A stretch of 64,000 nt of DNA from an uncultured virus (IMG/VR IMGVR_UViG_3300021400_004213). Lineage: Duplodnaviria; Heunggongvirae; Uroviricota; Caudoviricetes. The notes beneath the pieces were generated by a model that had not been told where the DNA came from, did not search any database, and worked only from the letters and a program-made list of their open reading frames with translations. Below, one piece after another: positions 10,714 through 62,207 of the stretch; within the stretch, counting starts at the first letter, position 1, and each line of letters starts with the position of its first letter. Location: IMG/VR virus record IMGVR_UViG_3300021400_004213, one strand, 5' to 3'. The translations under genes and the position numbers were made by a program.

Positions 10714-10774
10714 AGAATCTTTGCCTCCTATCTTTAGATTTCTACATGTAGAGATACTTGTGGACAAACAAATA

Positions 10775-13948: not shown

Positions 13949-14351
13949 ATTGAAACACCTCCATAAGCCTTTCATTCTTGTTTGTCCTATCAGATTAACG
14001 CCCTATAACTATTGACGCTTAACTATTCATAGTAAACATGCTCAACCTAAGCATAACCGAAAATGACTGATTTTTCAAGATATATTTCATATATTTCGAC
14101 ATTATCATCAAAAATCTTGATAACTAATTATCTATTTATTTCTACAACATATATAACATATATAACCACATTCTCTACACAATATATAAATTCGTGAAAG
14201 TTCTACAACTACTACACCTCTAAAAGCGAGGAGGTGATAATACATGCCTCTCTCACTTTCACGAGCGTGAGACAGAAACAATTGGCGTGAGATGAACATC
14301 TACTCGTCATTCACCACCATTTAAACTATAAAATGAGGTAATTACACTGAT

Positions 14352-19580: not shown

Positions 19581-20012
19581 ATGCCACCTATTGTCTTCTA
19601 TATAGGAATTGGAGGTATTTCATTCCTCTTAATTGCTTACGCAGTAATGGAATTGGCAAGGCCGTGGCCCACCCATTCCAAAGAACGTGCTAAGAAAAAG
19701 CACGATGAAAAAGTCGCAAAGCGACACGCTGAACGCGATGAAATCCTTGAAGAGGCTATTGAAGCCGACAAGATGTATCAGAAACTGACATCTGACGAAA
19801 ACTTCGAACAAGCCTTTGAAAGTGAAGATCCAACGTCAACTGAAGAAGAAATTGACGAAACGGAAGATACTGAAACTATCAGCAGACCAAATACAGATAG
19901 CAAACCTATTGAAGTATTAAACGATTCCGACATTTCGATCGAAGACGCACCTGTCGATGAAGAACTGCACGAGGAGGATACACTGGAGGTGTCCAAGAAT
20001 GATGAAGAATAA
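19581..20012 (+). CDS. Membrane-anchored protein with acidic tail
   Basis: N-terminal TM segment; AAGGAG RBS. Confidence 0.7.
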   Translation: MPPIVFYIGIGGISFLLIAYAVMELARPWPTHSKERAKKKHDEKVAKRHAERDEILEEAIEADKMYQKLTSDENFEQAFESEDPTSTEEEIDETEDTETISRPNTDSKPIEVLNDSDISIEDAPVDEELHEEDTLEVSKNDEE

Positions 20013-20400
20013 AAAATTATCTATCATTCTTACTATTGCAGCTTTTGCATTGTGTATCGGATCAATGATCCTGATCACAGCTAATGCTTTTGCCTCATCA
20101 CCCAAAACTGCTGAGGAAATCACCGACGGAAGATGCAACGACGTTTATGGATATGAAGAATTTGGCGATTTTATTTCCACCGACATGATGGATAAAATCC
20201 TGCCGACTCATCTCTCAAAATACATTTACGTTGAGATGCCGTATGGCGGATGTATGGCCAAACGAAATCCTATTTCTGCCGTTGATGAAAAAGGGGACAT
20301 CCTGTATCAAATGAAGGTTATACAGCCCCATGTTATTTACGTCAATATAGATGGCCGCTGCACAGCATATCGCGTCATCGAAAATAACACAACAAAATAA
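19999..20400 (+). CDS. Secreted or membrane hypothetical protein
   Basis: GGAGGT RBS before MMKNKK; hydrophobic signal segment. Confidence 0.65.
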   Translation: MMKNKKLSIILTIAAFALCIGSMILITANAFASSPKTAEEITDGRCNDVYGYEEFGDFISTDMMDKILPTHLSKYIYVEMPYGGCMAKRNPISAVDEKGDILYQMKVIQPHVIYVNIDGRCTAYRVIENNTTK

Positions 20401-20423
20401 TCACCACGAAAGGAAAGTCCATT

Positions 20424-20663
20424 ATGCCCAACATGAATTATGAAGAAGTCCAATTCACCGTTGAGCAGGAACTCGGAACCCTGCCTTCAAAAGGTCGCTG
20501 GAAGAAAAAAGTCCGTTTCATCAAATGGGGAGACAGACAAACTGAAGCAAAGCTGGACATTCGACCATGGAGTAACGATGATTCCCAGTGGGGAAAAGGT
20601 CTTACTTTCACCAGAGACGAGCTTATTGAGCTGAAAAAAATCCTGGATAGTGTCGAACTATAA
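20424..20663 (+). CDS. PC4/YdbC-family ssDNA-binding protein
   Basis: 'LGTL...W.K.V..I.W...KLDIRPW...WGKGLTFT.DEL..LK' pattern. Confidence 0.85.
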   Translation: MPNMNYEEVQFTVEQELGTLPSKGRWKKKVRFIKWGDRQTEAKLDIRPWSNDDSQWGKGLTFTRDELIELKKILDSVEL

Positions 20664-20807
20664 CAAATAAAACAATATATAATATAAAAAAACTCGCAGC
20701 CCTGATGACAAGTCATTGGGGCTGCTCGTTTTCTTTGTTATATTTCAAAACGGTAAAAACGATAAAACAAATCATTGAAAAACTCCTTAAGACAAAAAAA
20801 CACAAGT

Positions 20808-20884
20808 GTTTGTAGAGCGTTCCGCTCTGGAGTGCGAACAACGGTTCGCTTGCGAGTGTTAATATGAAGAAAATAAAATTCTTC
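20808..20884 (+). promoter_or_regulatory. Conserved structured leader, motif A copy 1
   Basis: Three hairpins and conserved linkers shared with 30959-31033. Confidence 0.6.
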
Positions 20885-20927
20885 GATAACTCATACTTCG
20901 TATTCAAACAGAAAGGACTTAACTAAA

Positions 20928-21128
20928 ATGATGAACAGATTTTCCGCTGCTACCGTAGCTGCCAAGATTACTGGCGTTGACAAGAACGAGATCCTGAAGA
21001 ACTGGAGAAAGGGTGCTGCTCCGAGCGGCAAGACCCTCAATGCCATTATCGTGGCAAACCAGCTGCTCAAGGGAACGTTCCACAAGAGCGCTGAGCCTGC
21101 GACCGAAGAAGACGTCGTAGAAGGCTAA
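20928..21128 (+). CDS. Small protein, paralog of 31074-31271
   Basis: RBS, own terminator (21140-21175), alignable with the 65-aa ORF. Confidence 0.75.
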   Translation: MMNRFSAATVAAKITGVDKNEILKNWRKGAAPSGKTLNAIIVANQLLKGTFHKSAEPATEEDVVEG

Positions 21129-21361
21129 CAAAGCTTTCAAGGGTACTCTCATACGAGAGTGCCCTCTTTTTTTTCTTTTCCTAAAACAAAACACTATAAC
21201 AATATTTGTAAAACAATCACTTAAAACAAAAAATAAAACAAAAGTGTGAGGCGACCTGTCACTCATAACAGGTCTTACGAGAGTAATTTCGAAAAATTAC
21301 AGCCGTCCATGGCTGATTAAAATAAATATTTTAAAAATTTCAATTAAGAAAGGAGGGCATC

Positions 21362-21595
21362 ATGCTCGCATTGATCTACATGGCCTTATGGCTAATTGGA
21401 ATTTATCACGCTGTTGCCTTCCTGGGCCTTGGTGTGATCTCTAAATTCCTTATTTTTTCCAGATTTGGTCTTTTCCGTATCATCATGCGACCGAAAGAAA
21501 CTGGAAAAAGCGCTGCTAAAATGCTGCGCAATACACTTCGGCACGGAATAATTGCTACACTCTGTGTCATTGGCATCATTTTATTGAACATCTGA
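21362..21595 (+). CDS. Small membrane protein
   Basis: AAGGAGG RBS; two hydrophobic segments. Confidence 0.65.
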   Translation: MLALIYMALWLIGIYHAVAFLGLGVISKFLIFSRFGLFRIIMRPKETGKSAAKMLRNTLRHGIIATLCVIGIILLNI

Positions 21596-21607
21596 GAGGA
21601 GAACATC

Positions 21608-21868
21608 ATGGCTAACAAATATCTCACCGAAAAAAGAGTAGAGCGTCTGACCGCTCTGTGCGGCAAATACATCGTCATTGCCGACAACAGCAGGCAGGAA
21701 GGCGAATGCCTCTACCTGCAGGACGAAACGCTCGTCCGCCCTACTGACGCTAAGGTCAGCGTCTGGACCAGATTTCTGGTCAATGCCAAAGGCTTCGAGA
21801 CCGCTGACGAAGCCAAGGCTGCAGCAGCTAAGTTCCGCTACGGACACCCGCGCATTGCGCAGGTTTAA
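21608..21868 (+). CDS. Hypothetical protein
   Basis: GAGGAG RBS; bidirectional terminator at 21925-21955. Confidence 0.7.
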   Translation: MANKYLTEKRVERLTALCGKYIVIADNSRQEGECLYLQDETLVRPTDAKVSVWTRFLVNAKGFETADEAKAAAAKFRYGHPRIAQV

Positions 21869-21962
21869 TCAGCGTTTAACGCCCGCCTTTACAGGTGGGC
21901 TATAATTTTTTTTTACTATAACAAAAAGCACCCATGACGGGTGCTTCTTTTTTATACAGGAT

Positions 21963-22745
21963 TTAATCCAAGATGCAATCTGTGGTAAATCCTGAAATGT
22001 ATGGGTCGATATATGTTCGCTTGTCAGGAACTCGCCTCAAAGTCCAACATTCCAAAGGAATATCTGCCGCTTTACACAGTTCTACGCCCTGTGCAGACAC
22101 AGAACCTGTGTCAATGAAAACTTCATTTTCTTTCGTTTTCAATAACTCAGCGGCAGATATAACATCACGACCCACACTGCTCGAAATCAGACCGAGTCGT
22201 GCTGTCGGATTATATTTGCTTATCCACCGCAAATATTGAAAATCATAAGAAATCCATGTCGTATCGTCGGATAAACCCGCCGATGAAATCATATCGACAA
22301 GGATTTTCATTTGTTCTTTCGTATACGAAGAATAATTCTTAATATCGACATATGGCGATAATTTGTGATCAGCACAAAACGCCACAAAGTCTTCAAACAA
22401 CAATATTTTGCTACCACTAAAACTTATTGATTGAATTTCACGAAGTGTCAACTCTTCGACAAAGCCTTGACCATCGCTAATGTCATCCACTTTGACATCA
22501 TGAATGCAAATCGGAATATTATCCTTCGTAAAACGAACATCTGTCTCGACATATTCAAATCCAGCATTTGCTGCGTTTTCATATGCCAATAAACTATTAT
22601 CTGGTGCGTCGTACCCACGATGCGCAATTACGCGAACATTCGAAAAATCATGTGCCTGACTCGGCAACAGCGCAATCACGAACAATAAACCAGCTAAAAA
22701 AAGCAAAATGCCAATGCTGATTAGAAATCTTGTACGTTTATTCAA
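21963..22745 (-). CDS. Membrane-anchored glycerophosphodiester phosphodiesterase
   Basis: IAHRG, 'ETDVRFTKD', 'HD' and terminal 'GFTTD' motifs; N-terminal TM segment. Confidence 0.88.
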   Translation of the reverse strand: MNKRTRFLISIGILLFLAGLLFVIALLPSQAHDFSNVRVIAHRGYDAPDNSLLAYENAANAGFEYVETDVRFTKDNIPICIHDVKVDDISDGQGFVEELTLREIQSISFSGSKILLFEDFVAFCADHKLSPYVDIKNYSSYTKEQMKILVDMISSAGLSDDTTWISYDFQYLRWISKYNPTARLGLISSSVGRDVISAAELLKTKENEVFIDTGSVSAQGVELCKAADIPLECWTLRRVPDKRTYIDPYISGFTTDCILD

Positions 22746-22767
22746 AACAATTCTCCTACTATTCCAT

Positions 22768-23715
22768 TCACTTCAATTCGTCCATGATAAAATATCGGGG
22801 ACGATTCTTTGACTCGATATATGTCTTTCCGACATATATCCCCACAATACCCAAAGCAATCAGCAAGAAACCTGCCAAAAGCCATATGGATAATAATATC
22901 CAATGACTAATACTGACGGTATGTCCAATGATTGCCAAAACAATCATCGCAATACCAACACCAAGCCCCACAAGGCAGGACAGACCGCCAAGTATCATAA
23001 TCCAAAACAACGGTTTTATGGAAAATGAAGTAATACCATCTATCGCAAGCGATAACATTTTCCATAAACCATATTTGCTTTCGCCAGCATCTCTTTCTTT
23101 GCGACTAAAATAAACATAATCTATGTTGTATCCCAAATTGGGAATCAGTCCACGCAAAAAGAGGTTCGTTTCTTTATATTGCAAACAACTCATCAAAGCA
23201 CGCTTTGATAATAAACGATAATCAGCATGGTCATAAATGGTTGGGGCGCCACAAAATTCCATAAATTTGTAAAATGCGTGTGCTGTAAATCGCTTCAAAA
23301 ACGTATCGGTCTTACGATCCGAACGTACACCACACACGATATCGGCACCACCAACAAACTTTTCGACCATTACATCGATGGCATCAATATCATCTTGCAA
23401 ATCACAATCTAATGATATGATTGCATCAGCGTAAGATGCTGCATGTTCCATACCAGCCCACAACGCTGTTTGATGCCCTCGATTGTGGCTGAGTCGAATT
23501 GCTTTCATGTTCGAATAGGTCGAACATAATGTTTCCATAACTCCCCATGTGTTATCTGTCGAACCATCATCGACCAGTAACACATATGATGCAGAATGAA
23601 CTCGATCTGTACTAATCAAAGTGTTCAATTTTTGTACCAAAATTGGACCAGAAATAGGCAGCATCTCTTGTTCATTATAGCAAGGAATTACCAAGCTTAA
23701 AATCGGTTTATTCAT
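22768..23715 (-). CDS. GT2 polyprenol-phosphate glycosyltransferase (GtrB/YkoT-like)
   Basis: VIPCYNE, VDDGSTD, DCDLQD, DYRLLS and R..GESKY motifs; two C-terminal TM segments. Confidence 0.9.
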   Translation of the reverse strand: MNKPILSLVIPCYNEQEMLPISGPILVQKLNTLISTDRVHSASYVLLVDDGSTDNTWGVMETLCSTYSNMKAIRLSHNRGHQTALWAGMEHAASYADAIISLDCDLQDDIDAIDVMVEKFVGGADIVCGVRSDRKTDTFLKRFTAHAFYKFMEFCGAPTIYDHADYRLLSKRALMSCLQYKETNLFLRGLIPNLGYNIDYVYFSRKERDAGESKYGLWKMLSLAIDGITSFSIKPLFWIMILGGLSCLVGLGVGIAMIVLAIIGHTVSISHWILLSIWLLAGFLLIALGIVGIYVGKTYIESKNRPRYFIMDELK

Positions 23716-23716
23716 G

Positions 23717-24400
23717 TTAAGCCTCCTTATGACACATCACCATATATTGTGCCCCTAAAGGGATTTTTCTTAACAGTACATCCGTAAAACGCATGAACCG
23801 TAATTGCTTGGGCCAGAAAATAATATAACGACTTTCAACCTTAGGAAAGACCAAAGATGTGAGTTGCTTGCTTTCCTTCACAGAAAGCATCACAGCATCC
23901 TTGTCCATTGGACAAGCATCAACCGAGCGTTTCGTTAAAAAATTCAGCATGTTATGCTCAATAATAATCAACACGCCACCAGGCTTCACTCGATGAGCTG
24001 CATCTAACATCACATCAGATCTTTCATCCAATGTTACATGATGTAACATCGTAATTAATAAAACAACATCATAATCTGCATCTAAATCATCACGATTTGA
24101 TACAAAACGATTATGGTCGTGTAATAATGTCAGAGAAACATTTGCAATCGAATCCTTCGAAATATCATATCCATGAATTACCATGTTCGGATATACATCT
24201 TGAATTGCTTGCGATAAACATCCGATTCCACAACCATAATCTAACAGCTTATGACATTGTTTTAAATAAGGTCTTAAGTAGAATAATTTATACTGCTCGA
24301 AATAAGCATGATCACTTCCTGGAAGAATCATACCTTTTTCTAACATTTTATCGTAATTGCTGGCATATGAATCAAATTCAGCATTATCATTCAACGGCAT
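23717..24400 (-). CDS. Class I SAM-dependent methyltransferase
   Basis: LDYGCGIG, GYDIS, LHH and KPGG motifs. Confidence 0.88.
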   Translation of the reverse strand: MPLNDNAEFDSYASNYDKMLEKGMILPGSDHAYFEQYKLFYLRPYLKQCHKLLDYGCGIGCLSQAIQDVYPNMVIHGYDISKDSIANVSLTLLHDHNRFVSNRDDLDADYDVVLLITMLHHVTLDERSDVMLDAAHRVKPGGVLIIIEHNMLNFLTKRSVDACPMDKDAVMLSVKESKQLTSLVFPKVESRYIIFWPKQLRFMRFTDVLLRKIPLGAQYMVMCHKEA

Positions 24401-24423
24401 ACATAGAACGCCCCCTTTATGAA

Positions 24424-25938
24424 TTATTTCAGTCGGAATAAAATAATGTCATCACCCGTGGAAAGGGTGGTAGACTCCACTACATCATATTTCGATGATA
24501 ATATCTCGCCATAAAGAGAACTTTCCACAGGATAAATGCCTTGCCCGATTGAATAATCAGTCCATTCAGAGTATAACACATAATCAGGCAGATTTGAACA
24601 AAAATCAGCATAAATCTTCTGCTTTTCTTCGGGACTGATATCAGCAACAACAAGCTGATACAAAAAATATTTGTTATTTGGCAAATGATCGTATTGCAAA
24701 TACAACTTGTTCTGTCGAGGTTCATTTATCGTTAAAACACTGGCTTCTTTTGGAATCTCATCAAAATACGAATCACATATCGCTGTTACCTCAGGATTCT
24801 CCGTTAATGATGGATCCATACAAAATGATAACCAAGCCAATGAATCGCTGATTGATAATAACAAAATCAGCCCCAAGACAAGAACACTCGACATATGTTC
24901 TTTGCAATATACACATAATTCAACCCATATTAAGAAAAATATGGGTATGAAAATGGAAAAATAATGTACATATCGTGCTGTTCCAAAGAACACATATAAA
25001 AATCCAGCAAAGCATGGTACGATAATGAAGAAAAGCATCCGAAATGCTTTATTCTTCCAATATTGATAGCCAAGAACAAAAGATCCTATCGACAATGTCG
25101 AAAAAGCTGTGATTGCAGCTAATAACATATCTAACGAAATATCAGAACGATCGGACATTGACGAAGCCACATACCGAAAATTATAAATCAATGTGGCATA
25201 CCACATATCAGACAATAAGCCATGCGTCCAAAAATAAATGCTAAATGGCACAATAGGAGTAGCGATACCACCAATACCAGCTAAAAGCGTAAAACCAATA
25301 TTTTTCCATTGTTTCTGGCTTAATAAATAACAGCCAACAGCAAATGTACAAAATATCAAATAAATGGCATTGGATGGTCTGCTCATAATACAAATACCAA
25401 TCGCTAAGCCTAAAACATAGCCATATAATGGCTTAAAGGTTTGATCATTTGAAAGAGCAAATGCATAAATGCAATATGTGGCTGCAGCTAAATAAGGCAA
25501 ACACCATTCTGATTGAGTGTTACCTGCATACCACGTACCGAGACCAAAAATCAAAATGCTCATTGATGTCCAAAACAGACTAGCTTTATTCGACAATCGT
25601 AGAGCAACAATTTTATAAAAAAAATAGAACGTCACAAACAGATTTATAATCTCTAACGCCCATAACACCGTCTTACCACCTAACGCGTAAGCCAGCATAT
25701 TAATAAAAAAAACATAAGGTCCTTTACTATCCCATAAATCCCGATAGGGAAGAAGACCATTTGCCCAACCTTTACCTATAATCTCAAATTGAGAGGCATC
25801 ATGACAATAATGTGGTCCAAAAATCGGAGATGATACTCCAGAGACAATTGAAATTGTCACAAATGATGCCAAAAATAATATCAAAATAACATATAAAGAT
25901 ATGCGTTTATCATCGCATACTGTCGTTTTCGCCATCAT
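24424..25938 (-). CDS. Multi-TM GT-C-fold glycosyltransferase (ArnT/PMT-like)
   Basis: 'D..QF..IG..W..G.LPYRDLWDSKGP' loop and about 10 or more TM segments. Confidence 0.75.
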   Translation of the reverse strand: MMAKTTVCDDKRISLYVILILFLASFVTISIVSGVSSPIFGPHYCHDASQFEIIGKGWANGLLPYRDLWDSKGPYVFFINMLAYALGGKTVLWALEIINLFVTFYFFYKIVALRLSNKASLFWTSMSILIFGLGTWYAGNTQSEWCLPYLAAATYCIYAFALSNDQTFKPLYGYVLGLAIGICIMSRPSNAIYLIFCTFAVGCYLLSQKQWKNIGFTLLAGIGGIATPIVPFSIYFWTHGLLSDMWYATLIYNFRYVASSMSDRSDISLDMLLAAITAFSTLSIGSFVLGYQYWKNKAFRMLFFIIVPCFAGFLYVFFGTARYVHYFSIFIPIFFLIWVELCVYCKEHMSSVLVLGLILLLSISDSLAWLSFCMDPSLTENPEVTAICDSYFDEIPKEASVLTINEPRQNKLYLQYDHLPNNKYFLYQLVVADISPEEKQKIYADFCSNLPDYVLYSEWTDYSIGQGIYPVESSLYGEILSSKYDVVESTTLSTGDDIILFRLK

Positions 25939-26335
25939 CTAACCTCCAATTCTACTCATTTATGAACATAATAATACAGAATCATTAAAAAATCAACCTA
26001 AAAACAACAAAAGAAATAGTGAGAATGCCGACCTACGAGATAGGTCGGCTCTTTCTTCCAGTCTAAATTTACACAACATACAAGGAGGGATTGTCAAAAG
26101 ACAATTATCGTGCTATAGTAATAGCACGAGAAAGACTGATAAGTGTGAGAAAAAGTACTGCAACCTGAACTGTACGGACATCGCAACCTATAACACCCCC
26201 ATCAGACGAGATAAAAAATGAAACAGAGTGAGAGGTACACAACCTCAACGGTTCTGTTCGATATAGAGTGAAAATCATTCGATTTCCTATTGATAATAAA
26301 TAATAAATAATAAAAAGAAAGGACGGTGAACTCAG

Positions 26336-26548
26336 ATGATTATACTCTTCGTAATTTCCTTTGGAGCTGGCATCATTATGATGTTCACTGGCTTTGTTCG
26401 CTCCGCAACAGTACACAGCGGTGTACTTAATCACTTTGATAATAGCAAAATGGCTCACAAAGTCAGAAAGATTCGCCTTAGAAGGCACTGGCTTATCACC
26501 CTTGCCTTATTCGCAATTGCGATCTACGCAGGCTTGAATCTCTATTAA
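26336..26548 (+). CDS. Small two-TM membrane protein
   Basis: Hydrophobic ends; terminator downstream. Confidence 0.55.
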   Translation: MIILFVISFGAGIIMMFTGFVRSATVHSGVLNHFDNSKMAHKVRKIRLRRHWLITLALFAIAIYAGLNLY

Positions 26549-26812
26549 GCTCATAACATTCGCTCTTCCAACAAAGGAGGAGCGAATTTTTTTTATCAAA
26601 AGAAAACAAACATATACGCCTTAACAACATCACCATCCTTCAAAAAAATAGTTAAAACTATACACTAAAACAAAAACACTGTCGATTCTCTTTATTTCAG
26701 AATATCATTGACTACCACTAAGAAATAAACCAGATAATATGTATGAAAAAATACGGGAGTTAATATGTTCCAACATGGAACCACATAAAACAAAAGGAGA
26801 TTATAATAAGTC

Positions 26813-27046
26813 ATGACAACTCTCAAGAAAATTGGAAATTACCTGCTCGCTGGACTCTACCTGCTCGTCGTCGTTCTCTTCTTCCTGATTAAAAACCTCG
26901 CCGTTGGCATCGTCAAAGCCGTTATTAAAGCGGTCAAAACGACCAAGACTCAGGTTCTGGCAACACTTCAGAAGAAGCGCGACTCAGTCGAAGATACAGA
27001 AACCATTCCTGCTATCATCAAAGACGTCGTGCAGCCTACTGCCTAA
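26813..27046 (+). CDS. Small membrane protein
   Basis: AAGGAG RBS, TM segment, terminator at 27062-27097. Confidence 0.65.
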   Translation: MTTLKKIGNYLLAGLYLLVVVLFFLIKNLAVGIVKAVIKAVKTTKTQVLATLQKKRDSVEDTETIPAIIKDVVQPTA

Positions 27047-27573
27047 TGTCCTTTCCTATCAAGTAGCACGTCAATAAGGCGTGCTACTTCTTTTTTTCAT
27101 ATTCAAAAACCCTCTATGAACACCAAAAAATACTCTAAATCCATCATTTTCTATTTTGCGATAAAATACGGATTGAATACGGCCCAAACAGTTTGTTTCC
27201 TTCAGTACTTCGAAACAACTGAATTTTACATTTTCCAATTCATCTTTTTAAAAATAATGGCGCCTTATTTTTTGCTTGTTCAGTTTCTTATAACAAAACG
27301 GTTCAACATTTCTTTTCGAACCTCACCACCAGCGCGTACCGCCTAATACTTGCAGTATAAGAACAAAGTTCAAAAGTGCAGTTAAAACCTGCTACGGGTG
27401 AAATTCCGAAAAATGTCAATGCAGAACAAAGAGGAGAATAAAAATGACTATGAAAAACGGAAAGATCATCATCACATTAGAAGATAGACGGAAAGCTCTG
27501 GAAGCTGCTCGTTCCTGATACAACAAATAAAACAAAAGTCCTCTCGCCCAAAGAACGGGAGGACATCTTTTTT

Positions 27574-28035
27574 TTATTCACCAAACTGCGAGCCTTTATC
27601 AGCTCCATCAACAATACCTGAAATATCAGGCAAAGCTCTTGTCGACCGATTTTCCTTGTCAACAAACTCTACAGCATTGGTTTTACTACGAGACACATTA
27701 GATTTCTTTTCCATTTTATCTTCGATGGAATTTTCTGATTTTGACGCCTGCTGACTCAAATTCTGAATACCAGCTTGTGTTGTCTTACGAACCTCGTCTA
27801 TCTTAGCTGAAACCAATCCACCCAAGACATGTGGAGGCATGACATCGGGACGGTCCGTTGTATGTCCAGCACCATGATCCATCATTTCCAATGTTTTCTT
27901 CAAATCAAAATTATGATCCTCGACAGCATTCCGTTTCTGCTTAATCTCGTTTCCCTTATCACCAGCTAAAGACATAGCATCTTGATGAATCATACTTCTA
28001 GCTTCTTCTCGAAGTTCCTGTGGTGTTTTCGCCAT
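27574..28035 (-). CDS. Hypothetical protein
   Basis: AGGAGG RBS before MAKTPQ; terminator at about 27537-27575. Confidence 0.7.
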   Translation of the reverse strand: MAKTPQELREEARSMIHQDAMSLAGDKGNEIKQKRNAVEDHNFDLKKTLEMMDHGAGHTTDRPDVMPPHVLGGLVSAKIDEVRKTTQAGIQNLSQQASKSENSIEDKMEKKSNVSRSKTNAVEFVDKENRSTRALPDISGIVDGADKGSQFGE

Positions 28036-28357
28036 AATCAACATCCTCCTTCTTTTCATCTATCAAACAGTGCAACTTTATCAGCACTATCTCAGAAATA
28101 AATGAGCTTTATGTGTCATAATTCTTATCACTAATAGCATATCATTAAATCTTTAGAACGCAAGATATTATATTTTCATAATAATGCCACACATAGATGA
28201 GAAACTCATCAATTATTCTTACTCGCCAGATTCATAAATGAACAAAAAATAAAACAAAAGAATGTGATTTCATCACATTTTGCGGGTGTCTTTATGAAAC
28301 CCATCAATACACCGATGAGAATCGCAATATCGTCATCCATAGGAAAGGAGACTTATT

Positions 28358-28573
28358 ATGACTAACAATAACTACTTCGATTCTTTCGACTGCCAGGTTC
28401 AGTGCGAAGAACTCTACAACGAAGAAGACTTCGAAATGGAACAGCTTCAGGCTGACTTCGCTAAATGGCAGGACGAACATCCTGACCTCGCGGCAGCCCT
28501 CGATGCTGAGGACTACTGGGACGCGTTCTTCAAATGGGACGCTCAGTACAACCAGCAGCAGTCAAACCAGTAA
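28358..28573 (+). CDS. Small highly acidic protein
   Basis: AAGGAG RBS; 18 D/E in 71 aa. Confidence 0.75.
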   Translation: MTNNNYFDSFDCQVQCEELYNEEDFEMEQLQADFAKWQDEHPDLAAALDAEDYWDAFFKWDAQYNQQQSNQ

Positions 28574-28651
28574 TATAACTAAATAGAGCTTAAGGCACAG
28601 CCCATAGGCTGTGCCTATGTTCGTTTCACACGAAATAGAAAGGAGACCTTT

Positions 28652-28981
28652 ATGACCATTTCGTTTGAATGCATCACAAACACTGACATGCCGTGGATTA
28701 ACACAGCAACTTTCTTCACCAACAGGGGTGAACTCATCATCGACAGAGATAGTACAGAATACACGTACAATCCCATTACAGGCAAACTGTCGATGGACTG
28801 GAAAAACGTTTATATCTGGGACGGACATGAACCCAACTATAACATTCCAGACGAATTCTTCGAACAGCCCATTCTCAAAAAGCTGGAAGTCGAAGACGAC
28901 GCTCCTGTAGGCTACGAAATCAAATGTATCCACTGTTATATTGACGGGACAGAAATACCCTCAATAGCTTTATACGATTAA
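28652..28981 (+). CDS. Hypothetical protein
   Basis: AAGGAG RBS. Confidence 0.7.
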   Translation: MTISFECITNTDMPWINTATFFTNRGELIIDRDSTEYTYNPITGKLSMDWKNVYIWDGHEPNYNIPDEFFEQPILKKLEVEDDAPVGYEIKCIHCYIDGTEIPSIALYD

Positions 28982-29090
28982 ATAACTTACAGAACAGAAT
29001 GCTGTGCTAGAAGAATAGCGCAGCATCTTTTTTACGGGAGAGATAAAGTCACGTACTGCTCACCGAACCCAAGAAAGGAATGTGAATATC

Positions 29091-29549
29091 ATGAATAAGG
29101 TGACCACAGAATATGAAGACAATCTGCTCAACATCAAGAACCTCATCATTCAACTCGTGATCTTTATCGCCAGTACAATCACTATCATCAACTTAATGAA
29201 CGCATCATTCGATATCGTGAATTATCACGATCAGTTTACGACAATGTTGATGATACTCGCTGTGATAGGAATGGCATTTGTAGTACGTTCTATTACATCT
29301 GCCAATATTATAGCCTACGCAGTATTCGGAATTCTCAGCTCACTTCTGACAGTCATACTTTCAATTATGGTGCATTTCATCATCCTGTATCACACTTTCA
29401 GCATAGAAATTCCGTTTGCAATCTTCGGAACATTCGTCCTGATTATATGTATACCAATAAATGCACTTATTGGATATGTTGTTGCCGAGCAATTCGATCT
29501 CAAAATTATCAAGGATAATTACAAGCTCGATTATTACTCACACATATAA
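29091..29549 (+). CDS. Four-TM membrane protein
   Basis: Four hydrophobic segments. Confidence 0.65.
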   Translation: MNKVTTEYEDNLLNIKNLIIQLVIFIASTITIINLMNASFDIVNYHDQFTTMLMILAVIGMAFVVRSITSANIIAYAVFGILSSLLTVILSIMVHFIILYHTFSIEIPFAIFGTFVLIICIPINALIGYVVAEQFDLKIIKDNYKLDYYSHI

Positions 29550-29568
29550 ACGAAAGGAAAGATAACTC

Positions 29569-29979
29569 ATGGGACAGTGTTACTCTGTCGAAGCTCGCTT
29601 CAATTTCAAGAACAATGATCCATCATCTTTTTGCCAGATCATCAAAGATGAGATTGCCGATAGAAACGGTAAATCTGCTATCTTTGACCTCGATAGAGGT
29701 GATTTGAACGACCCGTTTGGTTGCTTCAAAATTATGACTGCAAAAGATGCCGTGCAGAGCACGGACGGAACATGGTATGCCGATTTCAGCGGATCCTACG
29801 GCTGGGAATCTGTCATGATTGAAATCTTCCAGCACGCCGCTAAAGAACTGGACGATGGTTCTGTCATCACCATCTATCCAGATTATGATTCCACAGAAAT
29901 CGCAGTCAAAAACGGAAAAGTCGTTACGTCCTATATCGAATCAAAAGAGAACGAAGAAGACGAGGACGACGAAGAATGA
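29569..29979 (+). CDS. Phage-type hypothetical protein
   Basis: RBS; acidic tail. Confidence 0.7.
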   Translation: MGQCYSVEARFNFKNNDPSSFCQIIKDEIADRNGKSAIFDLDRGDLNDPFGCFKIMTAKDAVQSTDGTWYADFSGSYGWESVMIEIFQHAAKELDDGSVITIYPDYDSTEIAVKNGKVVTSYIESKENEEDEDDEE

Positions 29980-30023
29980 TGAAATAGCACTCATCAACAA
30001 TGTCGTTCAGTTAAGGAGAGAAT

Positions 30024-30308
30024 ATGACAAACTCAGAAGTATTTAAAGAATATAACACTGAACAATGGGTAATAGAACAGAACTTATGCTTTCTGTTACA
30101 GACCTATTGGGAAGAACATGGCAAAAAGGCGATTGAACAAGCCAAAAACGGATACATCACCCGTGATATGCCTTGCAATCCCGTAAGTTTCGTCAAAAAA
30201 TTCATGAAAGCCGAAACTCTGTGTGATGTAGAATACGCAGAAAAATCAAAAATCTCCACTATCGAAAACAACATAATAGAAGATGCAGATTTTATAGAAT
30301 TACCTTAA
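30024..30308 (+). CDS. Hypothetical protein
   Basis: AAGGAG RBS; terminator at 30320-30353. Confidence 0.65.
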   Translation: MTNSEVFKEYNTEQWVIEQNLCFLLQTYWEEHGKKAIEQAKNGYITRDMPCNPVSFVKKFMKAETLCDVEYAEKSKISTIENNIIEDADFIELP

Positions 30309-30414
30309 CTTAATAACATGGCACTCATCGAAACGATGGGTGCCTCTTTTTTTACTAACCTAACTCCAACCTCTACCCTAACCAAACAAAACCTCAAAAA
30401 AATAAATAAGTAGC

Positions 30415-30658
30415 GGGGTAAGTATAATAGTCTTTGCAGCCTTCTGGCCGTCAGCCATACAGGCTTCCAAGCTGGCAGGCGCCTTGTCCCTTAGAACAAC
30501 CTCGCTCAGCGGGTTGTTTAGGGAACTTGATATTACCTGGGCTTCTCCTTACAAAACATAACTCTCTCTTTCTCCCCACACCGAAGCCCAACTCACTGTC
30601 CGTGTTCTTAGATATATATAGTTACACCACATCCGTGGCGGACTATCATACTCACCCC
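30415..30658 (-). ncRNA. Putative ~245-nt multibranched structured RNA or ssDNA element
   Basis: 18-bp closing stem whose two mismatches are G.U/G.T on the minus strand; several internal hairpins. Confidence 0.45.
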
Positions 30659-30958
30659 TTCTTATAAAACAAAAATAGAAGAGTTCGACATACCGTAGCT
30701 AACCCTTTACACATTTACTTTCCCTCAAATATTACCTAAAAAGGGAGCGCTCCTTACGTCGCTTTCGGGAGTAATCATGATAAAGTGGTAGTCTAAAGCG
30801 GGATGACAACCCGAAGGTACCGTCCGTATAAGAAATCGTCAATCTTATACAATCGGTAAGGGGACACCGTAACCACTCAAGCCCCTATAATCGAAACCTC
30901 ATCAGAAGATGGGGTTTCGTTTTTTCAGAACATAAAAAAATCTTGTAAAAAACAATTC

Positions 30959-31033
30959 GTTTGTGAGCTAAAGCTCACTGGAGCGCATGCGTTGCATGCT
31001 TGCCGAGTGTTATTACGAAGAAAAAAGTTCTTC
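30959..31033 (+). promoter_or_regulatory. Conserved structured leader, motif A copy 2
   Basis: Counterpart of 20808-20884 with compensatory stem changes. Confidence 0.6.
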
Positions 31034-31073
31034 AAAAATAATAAATAACTGCAAAGCAGAAAAGGAGATAAAC

Positions 31074-31271
31074 ATGAATAACTACGCTCGCAATTACAAA
31101 GTCGCAACTCAGAAGGCCGCTACCGTATGCAACGTCGCCGTTGAAGACGTTCGTGCAAACTATCGCAAGGTCAATGATGCTCCGAAGGGCATCAAGCGTG
31201 CTTGCATCCTCGCTCACCGCATCATGAAGGGCTATGACAAGGCCCCTGCGGTTGAGACCGTCGAACAGTAA
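31074..31271 (+). CDS. Small protein, paralog of 20928-21128
   Basis: AAGGAG RBS before MNNYARN; terminator downstream. Confidence 0.75.
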   Translation: MNNYARNYKVATQKAATVCNVAVEDVRANYRKVNDAPKGIKRACILAHRIMKGYDKAPAVETVEQ

Positions 31272-31926
31272 AATAATAAAAGAAGCACTCTAAAGTGATG
31301 GCAGGTGATAGCGCGCATCCAAGAGTGCTTCTTCTTTTTTTATTTCATAAAACAAAACTTCATATTATAACAAAATATAACAAAGTTTTAATATGGCACA
31401 CCCCCAAAAAACGTGGGTGTGCCTCCTTTTTATAACAATGTGCGATGACTAAACCTTCGTTATGTCATCGCCTGGAAATTGCACTCTGCTGTTGCAGATT
31501 GTTGCAATTTCACAACCTATCTATAAAAGAATATGGCATATCCTAACTCCGATGGATATGCCTTGAAAATGTGGCGTGGCACTTCAAAATGCCCACGCCC
31601 CCATATATGCTGTACCATTTTTGCGAAGCAACTATCTCAAAAATAGCACCTGTCACTTTTTTGTTTTAACAGGTGCGTCAGGGAGGAGCGCTTTTTTGCG
31701 CTCCCCCAAAATTTCTGCTGTCAAGAACTGAGGTCCTCGGGCATCCCTTGGCGCAGCCCTCGGTATCGTTTCTGTTTGGGCATTTCTTATATACAGCCTT
31801 CAATAATTAAGAACATGTCCACCTATAGCAGGTGGACTCATTATTTCATGCTGTGGGTAGCGGGGTCGTTTTACGCACCAATGGTGGTGCTATTTCTCGC
31901 ATCCCGCGAAAGGAGATTTTGTTGTT

Positions 31927-32529
31927 ATGATCATGGATATTCTCAATCTGCCTACTGTTCACACTGTAGCTTTCACAGGTCGCAGACCGAAAGACCTTCT
32001 CGGTTATAAGGCTGAGCCTTACGAAAAGGCCATTTCGGCAACCGAAATCGTCCTTAACGCTCTCTGGCTGCGAGGTGCGTCCCGTTTCGTCTCTGGCGGA
32101 GCACAAGGATTTGATCAGATTGCATTTCATGCAGTCCATCATCTGAAATCTTATCATCCTGAGATTCAGAACATCCTTGACGTACCTTGCTCCACCCAGG
32201 CCGACCGCTGGGCTGAAAAAGGCGTTTTCAGCCGCGAAGAGTACAACGCAATTGTGAATGCTGCTGACTCTGTCAACATCATTGATTCCACAATTACGGC
32301 ATCTTCTGATTCCAAAGAGGTTTCTCGTGCGATGCACATGAGAAACCATGCTATGGTTGATGCCTGCGATGTTCTCGTCGCTCTCGTTCCTGCTGGCGAG
32401 GAACTTACCCACGGTGGGACCTTTGCGACCATCCAGTACGCAAAATCCCAGAAAAAGACGATCATCTACCTGAAGTATCGTCTCTCTACTTCCGTTGATA
32501 TCGTTGATGTCGAGGTGGCCTCCTTATGA
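31927..32529 (+). CDS. SLOG-superfamily protein (YpsA/DUF1273-like)
   Basis: 'VAFTGRRP', 'SGGAQGFDQ', 'RNHAMVD' and 'GGT..TIQYA' motifs. Confidence 0.85.
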   Translation: MIMDILNLPTVHTVAFTGRRPKDLLGYKAEPYEKAISATEIVLNALWLRGASRFVSGGAQGFDQIAFHAVHHLKSYHPEIQNILDVPCSTQADRWAEKGVFSREEYNAIVNAADSVNIIDSTITASSDSKEVSRAMHMRNHAMVDACDVLVALVPAGEELTHGGTFATIQYAKSQKKTIIYLKYRLSTSVDIVDVEVASL

Positions 32530-32810: not shown

Positions 32811-32912
32811 ACTCATTTTCATCACTTTATGCCATTTCATAAGAGCGATGCTTCGCATCTAACGGGCGCATTTATGTCTTTATCAAATGCCATATTGTGA
32901 AAGGAGATTCAT
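32811..32912 (+). repeat. Conserved leader, motif B copy 1
   Basis: Near-duplicate of 33619-33722, ending at the RBS. Confidence 0.75.
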
Positions 32913-33618: not shown

Positions 33619-33722
33619 ACTCATTTTCATCCCACTACACCATTTCATAAGAACGATGCTTCGCATCTGACGGGTGTATTGATGTCATCATCAAATGTCA
33701 TCTCATGAAAGGAGATATAACA
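33619..33722 (+). repeat. Conserved leader, motif B copy 2
   Basis: Near-duplicate of 32811-32912. Confidence 0.75.
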
Positions 33723-33956: not shown

Positions 33957-36411
33957 CAAACGCTTCAGGCTCATCGGTGTTACCGAGTGAGCCATTTTTT
34001 TCTAAACATACATACGACCCATTCTAAAGCAGAGTGGGGTCGTACTTTTAATGATATAACAAAAATCATCTCTCCCCGAAATCTCGGTTCGACATCAATC
34101 TGTCGATTCCTTCACTTCGTTCAAATTCGTATCTTCACTAACTTAATCACTTCACTCATTCACCGACATCTTATTTCTTCTAAAAGTGCAAAATCTGTAA
34201 CTTCCTGTTTTTCCATTTCTTTGCAGGTCCTCACTGATCTACCTGCTACGAAATTACAAAACAACATCGTCTCCTCACCCCCGACGACACGCCTTTTTGA
34301 ACCACTAACACGGGCGTCAGATTTTGCTTAAAAAGAGGAAAAAAGACCACCTCAGACCAAAATAAATGAGTAGTAAATTGGACTTAAAATGGACATAAAA
34401 TAAACGATTTAAGTCCATTTAATTATCGTTTTATGGACTTAAAATGGCCAAACAAAGTCCATTTTACTATTCAAAAACGGTCGATTTATGTCCATAAAAC
34501 TACTCAAAAACTCGGTCTGAAAACAAAGTTTCGAGGGGCATCTGACGATGCTTTCGGGTGTCATTATGAAATAGGTACGGCAAACGCTGCACAAAGTACG
34601 GGTCATATGGAGGCTGATTCGCTCCCTTCTAGGCTTAGGAAAACGCAACGGACCGAATAATACCAAAGTTCGCTAAAATTAAAAATTTCAAAAATTCCAT
34701 TTTTCATTTTCCTCCTTTCCTCCCTCTACTTGAAAGAGTTCTGTGATTACTCCTCATCACAGTGCTCTTTCTTTTTTTTCTTATAAAACAAAACACAACA
34801 ACTTTTTCTTTTTTAGTATTTTTGTTTTTAGCTGAAGCTAAAAACGCCCCAGTTTCAAAACCTGGGGACTGCCCACCCTCCATCCCCCAAATCTTACTCC
34901 GTTTCGTAACAATAAAAACCGCTCTTAACAACATCGCGGAATAACAAAAAATACAAGTGTCGGTGTGATACTTTTATGTCGAAATTGCGTGGCCGTCTCG
35001 CAAAACACTTTGGAATTTCTAACAGAAATACAAAAATTGCGAAATCTCCTATTTCTTCGAAATCAGCCTACGTCAGAGTTTCTCGAAATCATCCATTTCG
35101 CAATTTTTCATGGATCAACTTTAAACGGACAAGCCACGTCCACCAGCAATTAATTCTTCATTTCGTGTGCTTCGCCACGACATGATAACACGACAAAAAG
35201 CACACACCTCTAAATCACGCAGCAACATAAAGTTACTGCATCTCGATGTTCCCACATCGAAATGCTAATGTCTGTCTTTTGGGAGCTTCCAAAGAGCCAA
35301 ACATGCGTTACGGAGAATCGCACCATTTGCGTCGAAACGCTAAATTCGGTGCGATAAAAAACATCCCGAGTTGTTCGTTTCGTTAATCACTCATCGAACA
35401 AAAATGTAACTAAAGTTACTGCGGGATGTAAAACAAAAAAAGGCCAAAAACACGATGCACACGTTACACAGGTGCATCTTAATTTTTGTCCGAAAAAAGT
35501 GGGCCTTAACACCCAGAATAGCTTGCCAAAACGTCCATAAATGGACGTTGTGACAACCTGCGTCATCCATGCCCCTTGCATGGTGACGAGTGGGTGAGTC
35601 CCACACTCACTCAAATGGCGTTTAGTGACAAGTTGTTACAACTCGTCACATAATTTTCCGCCATTTTCGTGTGGCACGTTCACATACTTTCAGTAAGTGT
35701 ACGAGCCAATCTCTCGTGAATTCCCTTGACGGGCCTTGCACGAGAGAAATAAAACAAAAAAGGGCATAAGGGGTCGTGACGCAGATTCGTTACACTCATC
35801 CGCGCCCAGCATAGCTGGTACGACCTTCGTAGCCCGTCACTAACGCTCCGTTCTACTCGCCTTTACGCCTACGGCTGCAAGGCCCTCACTGCGAAACGTA
35901 ACGTCACTTCATGACGCCCCGTTTCTTGCCCTTCGCATTCTGCTACGGGTGCCCAAACTGATCCGATTTCGTCGTCTCAGAAAAAAAGAAAAACACAAAA
36001 TACTGATATGTCATGTATGAACGCAATTACATAGCATCCGAATGTTTCAAACTTCGCCTAAACGCAACATAGTTGCATTGTGGCTTCAGAAAACAACATC
36101 CTTATGCAAAAGTAAACTACATTGCGTAAATACTATGATCCGAATATAACATTATCGACTCATATCATATCAGACGATGATTCATAAAATGACAAAACGA
36201 ATCTTTTGATAAAATTATGATGGATTAAAAAATCCATCAAACGATAAATTACCGCTACGCTATTTTGTTCCAAAATTAACTTATCGAGTATCTTCAAGAA
36301 TCGAAAGAAATCTGAATCATCTTATTTTGAGTTTTTCAATAAAACAAAAAGCCGATACAAAAGTATCAGCCCTTCTAACGAAGACATCATTTACTAACGC
36401 GCATGATGTTG

Positions 36412-41601: not shown

Positions 41602-42200
41602 TAGAACTTCTGGCCTCCCATCGTTAAAATCAATTACATCACTAATAATATATCAAAAACCCTCATAAATCAAGAGAAAAAAACAAAGAAAGTGAGAACA
41701 ATCTTACACAAAATAAAGAAGTGAACCGAGAGAAGGTATGAATAAGACACACCCGTATGAAGTGAAGCAATTCACTTCCACATACTCATATGAGAAAAAC
41801 ACGTCGCTTGCTTCATAGCAGTGCGGCGTATTTTTTACTACGGTTCGAAACAACCATCACGGCCCAATGGACCGCTTCTTTAAGAATCCACAAGATTAAG
41901 ATACACATAATTATTCAATCAAAAAAGAGGTCCCAAAACGGTGGCAGATGTGACTTTGTCACACTGTCACACTTTTTTTCGAGACCCTTTATATAAAAAC
42001 GTAAATTGCACGAAAAATGATCGAAAAAATAAAATCGAAATATTTCACAAAATGATTTCTAAAAACATTTATACATAATTTCACGAAAATACACAAAGCA
42101 TTCCGTACTAATCTCGCATGAATTGACTTAAAAAAATGTGTGACAAATGTGACAAAATATAAAAATAAGTAATTTAACCGCTTAAATACTACATTTTCGA

Positions 42201-61805: not shown

Positions 61806-62207
61806 ATGAAATTCTATCCATGCCTCGTTATCACCAAAGAGGAATTGTACAATGCGGGGTGTCCCACCATTGAATTCAAGAACGGTCGGTTAACCGACCC
61901 ATCCATTGAACCCGTCATTGAAGACTACTGCCGTATGCCTGTCGTTAGTGTTCGTGAATCCACTCGTGACGAAAATGAAATCTTCGTTTTTGCAGCAGAC
62001 GGCTACATTCAGAAAAATCCTATGACAGGTAAGCGCTCTGTCGTTCTGATCGGCGCATACGACCCGCTCAAGGTTGTCTTAACAGACATTTTCGAAGAAC
62101 ATCCCGACAGAGATCCTTACGAAGTCTTCTGCTCCTATTCGTATCAGACAGACATTAACATCCAGTTAGATCTTCAGCACTGGGTTCGTGACGAATATAA
62201 GAAATAA
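61806..62207 (+). CDS. Hypothetical protein
   Basis: TTGACT...TAAAGT/TATACT promoter region; RBS. Confidence 0.65.
   Translation: MKFYPCLVITKEELYNAGCPTIEFKNGRLTDPSIEPVIEDYCRMPVVSVRESTRDENEIFVFAADGYIQKNPMTGKRSVVLIGAYDPLKVVLTDIFEEHPDRDPYEVFCSYSYQTDINIQLDLQHWVRDEYKK

Follow-up and report, generated by a model that had tools for sequence, protein, structure and literature searches.

Hairpin-and-box modules upstream of small genes in an uncultured mobile element: a candidate promoter type in place of a proposed RNA leader

Several described promoter types are close to the elements reported here. In extended -10 (TGn) promoters of the sigma-70/sigma-A kind, which include -35-less phage promoters, a TG stands one base before the hexamer. 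The single-subunit promoters of the T7/SP6 type have a contiguous conserved block and give an mRNA with a 5'-terminal stem-loop, and the Frpo promoters, single-stranded DNA (ssDNA) elements in the leading regions of plasmids, restore a double-stranded -35/-10 by means of a long, imperfect hairpin. Only for N4-like phages is the dependence of a promoter on structure known in detail. As described in PMC4496689, the early promoters of coliphage N4 contain an inverted repeat with a stem of 5–7 bp and a 3-base loop, the variable bases of which need only pair; the repeat is extruded as a DNA hairpin beside the start site and drives small early genes, and the virion RNA polymerase reads bases of the hairpin (-11 purine, -10G, -8G) and starts 11 nucleotides (nt) from the loop centre. 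The present report concerns a stretch of 64,000 nt from an uncultured virus (IMG/VR record IMGVR_UViG_3300021400_004213), the whole of which is referred to below as the window, and in particular the intergenic elements in front of two of its genes, p1 and p2, which specify small proteins. We regard the stretch as an uncultured phage- or plasmid-like mobile element of rumen Clostridia; the sequencing runs that contain it are bovine or other gut metagenomes, and relatives of its small proteins are located in metagenome-assembled genomes (MAGs) of rumen Clostridia.

The initial annotation had read these elements as an undescribed three-hairpin leader RNA, such as a riboswitch or an autoregulatory ribonucleoprotein. 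They are instead probably promoter regions of an element-specific type made up of a hairpin and a box. The module comprises a short perfect hairpin, a gap of 3–4 nt (N3-4) and the sequence CGRGTG-WWAWYAY-G(AA), and the same box was found upstream of other genes at places where RNA contigs begin. On sequence grounds, the conserved linker of the initial annotation is this box and hairpin 2 is the box's upstream hairpin. The module is real and conserved and, as a promoter class, appears to be undescribed; literature listings on phage cruciform/hairpin promoters and on single-stranded plasmid promoters contain no match.

Both copies were found where they had been described, each before a paralogous gene for a protein of 65–66 amino acids and a terminator, and all three 6-bp inverted repeats were verified in each by reading of the sequence and an inverted-repeat scan. 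On the + strand, copy 1 consists of hairpin 1, AGAGCG TTC CGCTCT (20814–20828; arms 20814–20819/20823–20828), followed by GGAGT; hairpin 2, GCGAAC AACG GTTCGC (20834–20849; arms 20834–20839/20844–20849), which ends 3 nt 5' of the box; the box CGAGTG-TTAATAT-G (20853–20866), the proposed core promoter; and hairpin 3, the palindrome GAAGAA-N7-TTCTTC (20866–20884; arms 20866–20871/20879–20884), which begins at the conserved G. The 5' boundary of this unit is a terminator-like hairpin of the preceding gene (20696–20725, +; 13 pairs, then a T-rich tail); p1 itself, a Shine-Dalgarno-preceded gene for a protein of 66 amino acids, lies at 20928–21128 (+) with its terminator at 21140–21165 (+). Copy 2, likewise on the + strand, has hairpin 1, GTGAGC TAAA GCTCAC, with an extra T/A pair (30963–30978; arms 30963–30969/30972–30978), followed by TGGAGC; hairpin 2, GCATGC GTT GCATGC (30985–30999; arms 30985–30990/30994–30999), 4 nt 5' of its box; the box CGAGTG-TTATTAC-G (31004–31017); and hairpin 3, GAAGAA-N5-TTCTTC (31017–31033; arms 31017–31022/31028–31033). 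On its 5' side lies a terminator-like hairpin (30892–30919, +), which is also the 3' end of a candidate non-coding RNA (ncRNA), and on its 3' side p2, again Shine-Dalgarno-preceded, which specifies 65 amino acids (31074–31271, +). The linkers said to be conserved, GTTTGT, TGGAG and TTGC(C)GAGTGTTAWTAY, are indeed common to both copies. The statement that the stems vary with pairing kept applies to hairpins 1 and 2 and fails for hairpin 3, the arms of which are identical in the two copies. The pattern GAAGAA-N3-9-TTCTTC occurs four times in the window against 0.08 expected; matches to the linker pattern TTGCSRAGTGTTA with up to three mismatches (47 in the window, 57 expected) were uninformative.

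The recurrence of the module was assessed with a composite criterion, a perfect hairpin (stem of at least 5 bp, loop of 3–8 nt) ending 2–6 nt before CGRGWG. Nine such sites are present in the window, the mean in 100 dinucleotide shuffles being 1.06 (standard deviation 1.08, largest value 5), and in eight of the nine the gap between hairpin and box is exactly 3–4 nt; a tenth site (32847–32868) carries the box variant CGGGCG. The box alone, scanned as CGRGWG plus A/T-rich sequence on its 3' side, shows no enrichment (64 observed, 66 in shuffles), and a perfect hairpin ends 2–8 nt upstream of 9 of the 64 boxes, compared with a background of 5.6% (1024 of 18252 sampled positions). The clear modules have their boxes starting at 20853, 21278, 28283, 31004, 32863, 33671 and 34555 on the + strand and at 41755 on the - strand, and seven of these eight lie 47–154 nt 5' of a Shine-Dalgarno-preceded start codon on the same strand. 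Since this core precedes at least eight genes of the window, most of them unrelated, and since a metagenomic copy (in contig locus L009) precedes an unrelated ORF (open reading frame) of 122 codons, the element is not a private partner of the small protein. What survives of the proposed small-protein module is thus a linkage to an unannotated family, without exclusivity; likewise, the structured motif is conserved, shows compensatory changes and belongs to no Rfam family, although its core recurs before unrelated genes.

Position counts anchored on the box were made over 13 hairpin-associated sites and over all 17 sites. Three positions that were not selected for are strongly biased: A at box+11 (11/13 and 14/17, respectively), a pyrimidine at box+12 (12/13 and 15/17) and G at box+13 (12/13 and 15/17), the last usually followed by AA. 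Within the box, box+4 is T in 11 and box+5 is G in all 13 hairpin-associated sites, which gives a TG one base before an A/T-rich hexamer, and box+8 is A in nine. No base within hairpin 2 is conserved across sites. The stems are of 5–8 bp and the loops of 3 nt in 7 of the 13 sites (4–8 nt in the rest); TTC loops on the sense strand, corresponding to GAA on the template strand, are frequent (28261, 32847, 33655, the relatives L007 and L008, and hairpin 1 of copy 1). In DNA, d(GNA) triloops are unusually stable.

The other sites of the window are as follows. GACCTGT..ACAGGTC, 3 nt and CGAGAG-TAATTTC-G (21253–21290, +) precede ORF 21362; AATGTGAT TTC ATCACATT, 3 nt and CGGGTG-TCTTTAT-G (28261–28296, +) precede ORF 28358; GATGC TTC GCATC, 3 nt and CGGGCG-CATTTAT-G (32847–32876, +) precede ORF 32913; and the same hairpin, 3 nt and CGGGTG-TATTGAT-G (33655–33684, +) precede a small ORF at about 33718. 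GCATC TGAC GATGC, 3 nt and CGGGTG-TCATTAT-G (34538–34568, +) has no clear ORF downstream, and on the - strand GAAGTGAA TTGC TTCACTTC, 3 nt and CGGGTG (41742–41778) lies upstream of ORF 40060–41601. Boxes without a short upstream hairpin start at 26754, 29035, 19294 and 30766; at 29035 and 19294 the terminator of the preceding gene lies 8–10 nt upstream. The first of these, CGGGAG-TTAATAT-G before ORF 26813 (26754–26781, +), is followed by a palindrome, GTTCCA ACA TGGAAC (26767–26781), which begins at the conserved G of the box. The segments 32820–32875 and 33625–33690 form a second paralogous promoter-region pair with about 55 nt in common, including an identical hairpin and box.

Transcript evidence came from contigs, not raw reads, of three metatranscriptome runs (X15, X16 and X17) and one DNA run (X2); X15 is from the same sample as the best DNA run for the stretch. 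The RNA contigs of four box-bearing genes begin 27–65 nt 3' of the box, and none covers hairpins 1 and 2. For p2 they extend from 31035 to 31264 (X17) and from 31057 to 31311 (X15) and so begin just 3' of hairpin 3. For p1, an X17 contig starts at about 20909; depth is nil in 20500–20866 in all three RNA runs, although X15 reaches 17.6 inside the ORF. The contigs of ORF 26813 begin at 26786 (X15) and at about 26785 (X17 and X16, aligned from 26793 with eight unaligned letters before), that is at box+31, directly after the palindrome 26767–26781. That of ORF 28358 begins at 28310 (X16), or box+27, and those of ORF 21362 begin at 21343–21365. No RNA contig from X15–X17 contains the box of the p1, p2, 26813, 28358 or 21362 units, and the DNA run continues through the places where the RNA contigs start. 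Because the RNA contigs stop at or before terminators and also cover a separate non-coding stretch (30738–30896), they behave as transcripts and not as DNA carry-over. Between the upstream terminator and hairpin 1, no promoter candidate is conserved across orthologues; -35/-10 pairs differ in spacing or are missing. It is for these two reasons, the absence of the box from the contigs and of a conserved promoter upstream, that we place the promoter inside the supposed leader. The initial annotation had named a position upstream of the transcription start as a finding that would count against an RNA; the evidence leans that way, the contig ends being a weak hint only.

Relatives were sought by a protein-guided scan of metagenome contigs, which gave six loci (L006–L011). 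L006 is identical to the window at the element; L007–L010 have p2 orthologues (73–83% identity) together with the whole motif, and L011 (65% identity) retains only TGGAG and one hairpin. The longest related contig recorded measures 93.8 kb. A covariance model, one of the checks that had been suggested, was built from copy 2 and the four metagenomic orthologues of L007–L010, and recovered the left-out copy 1 with 37.6 bits (E 9e-8). It also found the further copy in L009 (1982–2057; 44.4 bits, E 1.5e-9), which has hairpin 1, TGGAGC, hairpin 2 and the box without hairpin 3, and scored 34509–34583 weakly. Another weak match, at 61918–62017 on the - strand (22.3 bits, E 8.6e-4), combines CGAGTG with a TTC-looped hairpin of 8 bp; it is antisense within ORF 61806–62204 and could be an antisense promoter or due to chance. 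Exact-pattern scans of viral contigs gave 5 and 32 matches, all of them coding or ribosome-binding-site look-alikes with no homologue among them; protein-guided scans of viral contigs with p1 and two family alignments, and a scan of genome contigs with the p2 subfamily, found no relatives.

In a structural alignment of seven homologous copies, helix 2 shows two-sided changes in four of six pairs and one-sided changes in none, with 97.6% of cells paired. All seven changed cells go from Watson-Crick to Watson-Crick with no wobble intermediate. These paired changes indicate that the pairing of hairpin 2 is under selection. In helix 3 none of the six pairs covaries and four never vary; judged by the alignment, hairpin 3 is under sequence selection, not pairing covariation. 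Helix 1 is only 70% paired in this partly misaligned alignment owing to unequal loop lengths; on visual inspection the pairing is present in copy 1, copy 2, L009 and L010, and L007 and L008 have a degenerate helix. The covariation score of the whole structure (0.274) exceeds those of all 500 shuffles and of all slid registers.

Folded as ssDNA, the three hairpins are the minimum-energy structure on both strands (z -3.9, -4.2, -2.1 and -3.6). The DNA level is also indicated by the position of the hairpins outside the RNA contigs, the absence of wobble in helix 2 and the TTC/GAA triloops, and we infer that hairpin 2 acts as a DNA structure, not as RNA. The ssDNA motif that the initial annotation had offered in brackets is a possibility which forms part of the promoter reading.

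According to this reading, each supposed leader would be the promoter of a monocistronic unit in the mobile element, and the 14–16-nt box CGRGTG-WWAWYAY-G(AA) its core, used by many genes of the element. Hairpin 2, a short GC-rich inverted repeat 3–4 nt 5' of the box, would occupy the -35 position with its sequence free and its pairing kept, and may act at the DNA level as an extruded hairpin or cruciform or as a structure-specific contact. The transcription start would fall between box+13 and box+31, on the conserved G or a little beyond it. Hairpin 3 could form the stem-loop at the 5' end of the mRNA, in which case the initial transcribed sequence would fix its 5' arm, or else be a palindromic operator across +1; hairpin 1 with TGGAG would be an upstream accessory element in a subset of these promoters, and the proteins of 65–66 amino acids the cargo of two such units. 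Promoter function, start position, DNA-level action of the hairpin and the polymerase or sigma factor that reads the element are all inferred.

Three start positions may be envisaged, each of them downstream of hairpins 1 and 2 and of the box. Read as an extended -10 promoter, with TG at box+4/5 and the hexamer at box+7–12, the element would start at about box+19/20, in the loop of hairpin 3; the contig starts lie 8–12 nt beyond this point, a difference which, in contigs only, is compatible with 5' loss in libraries. The likeness includes the TG before an A/T-rich hexamer, the lack of a recognisable -35 and the promoter-like distance to the start codon. Unlike extended -10 promoters, the element has an invariant CGRG 5' of the TG, C in place of the -7 T in 7 of 13 sites, an invariant G right after the hexamer and a structured inverted repeat in place of the -35 region. 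Alternatively, the conserved G at box+13 could be +1, with hairpin 3 and the 26813 palindrome as 5'-terminal mRNA stem-loops; the lack of covariation in hairpin 3 would thereby be explained by a 5' arm fixed by the initial transcribed sequence. Here the likeness is to the T7/SP6 type, in that the block ends with A-pyrimidine, then the conserved G and purine-rich GAA, and a hairpin begins exactly at this G in p1, p2 and ORF 26813, resembling a +1 stem-loop; unlike in that type, the block is shorter, and no such polymerase gene was found in the window. A third option takes the contig ends at box+27 to +31 as starts, which, 10–11 nt from the centre of the second palindrome, would have the geometry of N4.

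With N4 the element has in common stems of 5–8 bp, frequent TTC triloops on the sense strand (GAA on the template) and compensatory pairing, and the box-associated TTC/GAA hairpins resemble the GC-rich heptamer of the N4 promoter (PMC4496689). Unlike in N4, the conserved bases lie in the box 3' of the hairpin, none being inside hairpin 2, the fixed distance is that from the hairpin base (3–4 nt), and the loops are of 3–8 nt. The RNA contigs also start at least 40 nt from the middle of hairpin 2; only the second palindrome (hairpin 3 or 26767–26781) is followed at 10–11 nt by contig starts. No giant polymerase gene was seen in the window, and the host is of a Clostridia lineage, not Gram-negative. 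The promoter class resembles the N4 hairpin promoters only loosely. In common with Frpo, hairpin-forming DNA here stands upstream of groups of small genes that share an orientation and belong to a mobile element; unlike in Frpo, the hairpins are of 13–22 nt and the box is left single-stranded, outside them.

A stronger version, in which a template-strand extruded hairpin with GAA-type triloops is read by a dedicated polymerase or sigma factor encoded by the element, as a Gram-positive counterpart of N4, and many transcripts begin with a +1 stem-loop, is put forward as a tentative possibility. If the promoter reading holds, the supposed riboswitch-like RNA would become a new promoter architecture, in which a structure-constrained hairpin replaces the -35 across a block of small co-oriented genes. 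It would be an unrelated second case of structure-dependent promoters, in Firmicutes elements, and would bear on the timing of early expression and on supercoiling-sensitive transcription. More generally, compensatory changes in intergenic hairpins beside conserved linkers can mark promoters and not necessarily leader RNAs.

Several observations weigh against the promoter reading. Contig ends cannot prove a transcription start, and both they and coverage gaps are weak evidence. The box at 30766 lies inside the RNA contig 30738–30896, so that not every box is a promoter. Perfect-stem hairpins were chosen by the search criterion, and the absence of G-T pairs at non-homologous sites is therefore partly circular. 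The box fits an extended -10 only in part, with the -7 T in 5 of 13 sites and C in seven, and the four close p2 orthologues read AAAACAC at the hexamer region. Neither an RNA polymerase nor a sigma factor was recognised in the Pfam scan of 67 window ORFs or in the PHROGs scan of 20, and a dedicated enzyme is thus hypothetical. Finally, the loop of the hairpin next to the box in relatives from Clostridia MAGs is C(TTCG)G, a classic stable tetraloop of RNA, and this favours a role as RNA in those relatives; since a plausible promoter is present further 5' at these loci, hairpin and box could be transcribed.

Of the other explanations, the one that fares best, though we think it unlikely, is a host sigma-A extended -10 promoter whose inverted repeats are double-stranded DNA operators for dimeric regulators, with hairpin 3 across +1 perhaps bound by p1 or p2 (negative autoregulation) and no extrusion. 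The TG at 11 (T) and 13 (G) of 13 sites fits this well, and the predicted start, 7 nt after the hexamer, coincides with the centre of hairpin 3. This hairpin is also invariant while the two proteins are 35% identical and the other stems have fully diverged, as sequence-specific protein recognition would have it. The small proteins are basic with a helix-turn-helix (HTH)-like segment, to which the only weak matches are due; each of these is an HTH domain (RsmI_C for 5 of 39 members; DnaA domain IV, E 0.11). What this explanation does not accommodate is hairpin 2, with its compensatory substitutions between close orthologues, unrelated sequences at about ten promoters and fixed distance to the box: it is free in sequence and yet paired, which a sequence-reading dimeric protein would not tolerate. 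The -7 T is missing at most sites. No HTH family was over threshold and no structural match was obtained for the small proteins; L011 and the MAG loci, moreover, encode family members without the GAAGAA/TTCTTC palindrome.

An improbable reading is the one first proposed, a transcribed cis-acting 5' leader RNA (riboswitch, attenuator, nut-like site or site for the small protein) whose 5' end after hairpin 3 would arise by processing. The compensatory variation of hairpin 2, and in part of hairpin 1, would suit it, as would a weak sigma-70-like pair just 5' of hairpin 1 in some copies (copy 2, L009), a pair which L007 and L010 do not conserve. The A/U-rich sequence in which the RNA 5' ends fall, immediately 3' of a hairpin, could be an endonuclease site, and a leader fragment of 80 nt could drop out of standard libraries; hairpins 1 and 2, nevertheless, are in no RNA contig of the three runs although the ORFs are covered. 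Like the leaders of Rfam, the element is multi-hairpin, intergenic and placed before a small gene. The Rfam scan that had been proposed gave no match at gathering score (4227 families, whole window); the nearest family, wcaG RNA (RF01761), scored 20.8 bits (E 3.2; gathering score 42) with copy 2 only and was taken as chance. The RNA fold of the + strand of the motif alone is no better than shuffles (z -1.6 and -1.7), helix 2 has no G-U intermediate (no one-sided changes), and the window-type copies have no GNRA or UNCG loop. The hairpin and box core stands before many unrelated genes, always at a promoter-like distance. Thus the claim of a transcribed leader is not supported, in view of this recurrence, of contigs beginning 3' of hairpins 1 and 2, and of a hairpin 3 without covariation.

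That the RNA leader is retained at all, at its low probability, is due to the MAG relatives, with their C(TTCG)G loop in the hairpin abutting CGGGTG, a second hairpin that encloses the Shine-Dalgarno sequence, and the plausible promoter upstream. These Clostridia loci (L044–L054) have a p1-like gene with a nearly identical upstream block of 140 nt in differing upstream contexts; in L054 the hairpin and box are deleted and the gene is frameshifted. The gene adjoins transfer-messenger RNA (tmRNA; L050, L053) or transfer RNA (tRNA)-Ala (L045, L046), and, with these neighbours and varied contexts, its behaviour is that of a cassette-like unit located at the margins of integrated elements.

Single-strand initiation, replication or recombination signals (G4/ssi-type priming, nick or attachment sites) which are intergenic by chance are very improbable. 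Three consecutive hairpins that fold equally well on both DNA strands, the tRNA or tmRNA integration sites of the MAG relatives, and window genes for a D5-type primase-helicase, a polymerase-like protein, RecJ and a PC4-like ORF speak for them; on the other side, the modules are many (about ten in 25 kb), always co-oriented with the downstream gene and 47–154 nt from its start codon, and transcription accounts better than priming or recombination for a conserved box with RNA 5' ends after it. Also rejected were a sigma-54 reading of TGGAG..TTGC (GG-to-GC spacing about 20 nt, not 12), a Bacteroidetes-type -33/-7 reading of GTTTG (misfitting spacing; genes with strong Shine-Dalgarno sequences), an archaeal BRE/TATA reading (the relatives are bacterial MAGs with tmRNA and SmpB), REP-like repeats (every hairpin has its own sequence), and a terminator role of hairpin 2 (a T-run is absent from most copies, and there are strong terminators upstream already).

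The small proteins themselves are, by sequence similarity, weak but real paralogues: p1 and p2 have 35% identity over 51 amino acids (BLASTP, E 4e-5) and are reciprocal best matches among the six-frame ORFs of the window. Related clusters at 90% identity number 4 for p1 and 17 for p2, all unnamed, and a 22-member profile, run against 1.84 billion proteins, retrieved only 28 representatives (E <= 0.001), almost all of them 58–119 amino acids long. No Pfam family was over threshold; the match to RsmI_C, an HTH domain, recurs weakly (best E 0.0025; 18 bits against a cut-off of 27), and the best PDB profile match is the HTH domain of DnaA (domain IV). AlphaFold gives a three-helix model (pLDDT 85.7), which has no convincing structural neighbour (Foldseek, none at E <= 0.001; best VIA Z 4.8); an atlas search likewise gave no clear relative. 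The proteins are basic and carry the segment AAK(V/I)TGV...(I/V)..N(Y/W)RK, which we take to fit an HTH pattern. They are thus modelled as basic three-helix proteins, possibly of HTH type. With the neighbouring candidate ncRNA, this unannotated family represents additional uncharacterised parts of the element.

In the transcribed part of the p2 unit, a small hairpin of the 5' untranslated region, CTGC AAA GCAG (31049–31059, +), stands just before the Shine-Dalgarno sequence in the region covered by RNA contigs; in L010 (about 619–629) it reads CCGC AAA GCGG, a compensatory change. The p2 terminator (about 31280–31333, +) has a conserved apical insert (..TGGCAGGTGATAGCGCGCA..) and a long stem that covaries (GCACTCT/AGAGTGC against GCACCCT/AGGGTGC); terminators of this type are present in L007 (about 660–718), L009 (about 3204–3254) and L010 (about 860–905). 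Such an insert is unusual and atypical of a plain terminator.

The region from 20 to 32 kb is a string of monocistronic units, with 34 terminator-like sites against 9.4 expected. Among the window ORFs, Pfam and PHROGs named serine hydroxymethyltransferase, RecJ, tyrosine integrase and ClpP besides the D5-type primase-helicase and the polymerase-like protein, and also recognised Thg1, RlaP, an SNF2 helicase, two SLOG proteins and large Cna_B/FctA/DUF285 surface proteins; neither capsid nor terminase was recognised among the ORFs scanned. No tRNA gene was found in the window. Megablast of 20000–32000 against phage records, TBLASTN of p2 against phages and plasmids, and TBLASTN of a 1004-amino-acid ORF against phages gave no match. 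The family PF00940, sought in connection with a virion or single-subunit RNA polymerase, was found in none of five MAG genomes, an uninformative result since the control was likewise found in none of 14. Three very large surface-protein genes on the - strand (3043–10767, 3–2996 and 11117–13975) encode Cna_B, FctA-isopeptide, DUF7601 and DUF285/LRR domains. Adhesin-like in character, they are more typical of Firmicutes plasmids or integrative and conjugative elements than of phage virions.

Just 5' of copy 1, an ORF of 79 codons (20424–20663, +) gives a sub-threshold match to PC4 (E 3.7e-4; 20.4 bits against a cut-off of 25). PC4 is an ssDNA-binding transcriptional coactivator, and the ORF may be of interest if the DNA hairpins are functional. 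The segment 34538–34780 has a module with no convincing ORF up to a terminator-like hairpin near 34740–34780, and may be another small RNA. The candidate ncRNA directly 5' of copy 2 (30738–30896, +; about 160–180 nt), with a promoter-like site at 30706–30733 and its terminator at 30892–30919, is covered by an X17 RNA contig, has a fold of -60.1 kcal/mol (z -4.07) and is without an Rfam match. It is partly conserved in L009 (about 2640–2830), where it includes a tRNA-like T-arm sequence, in a region in which ARAGORN finds nothing.

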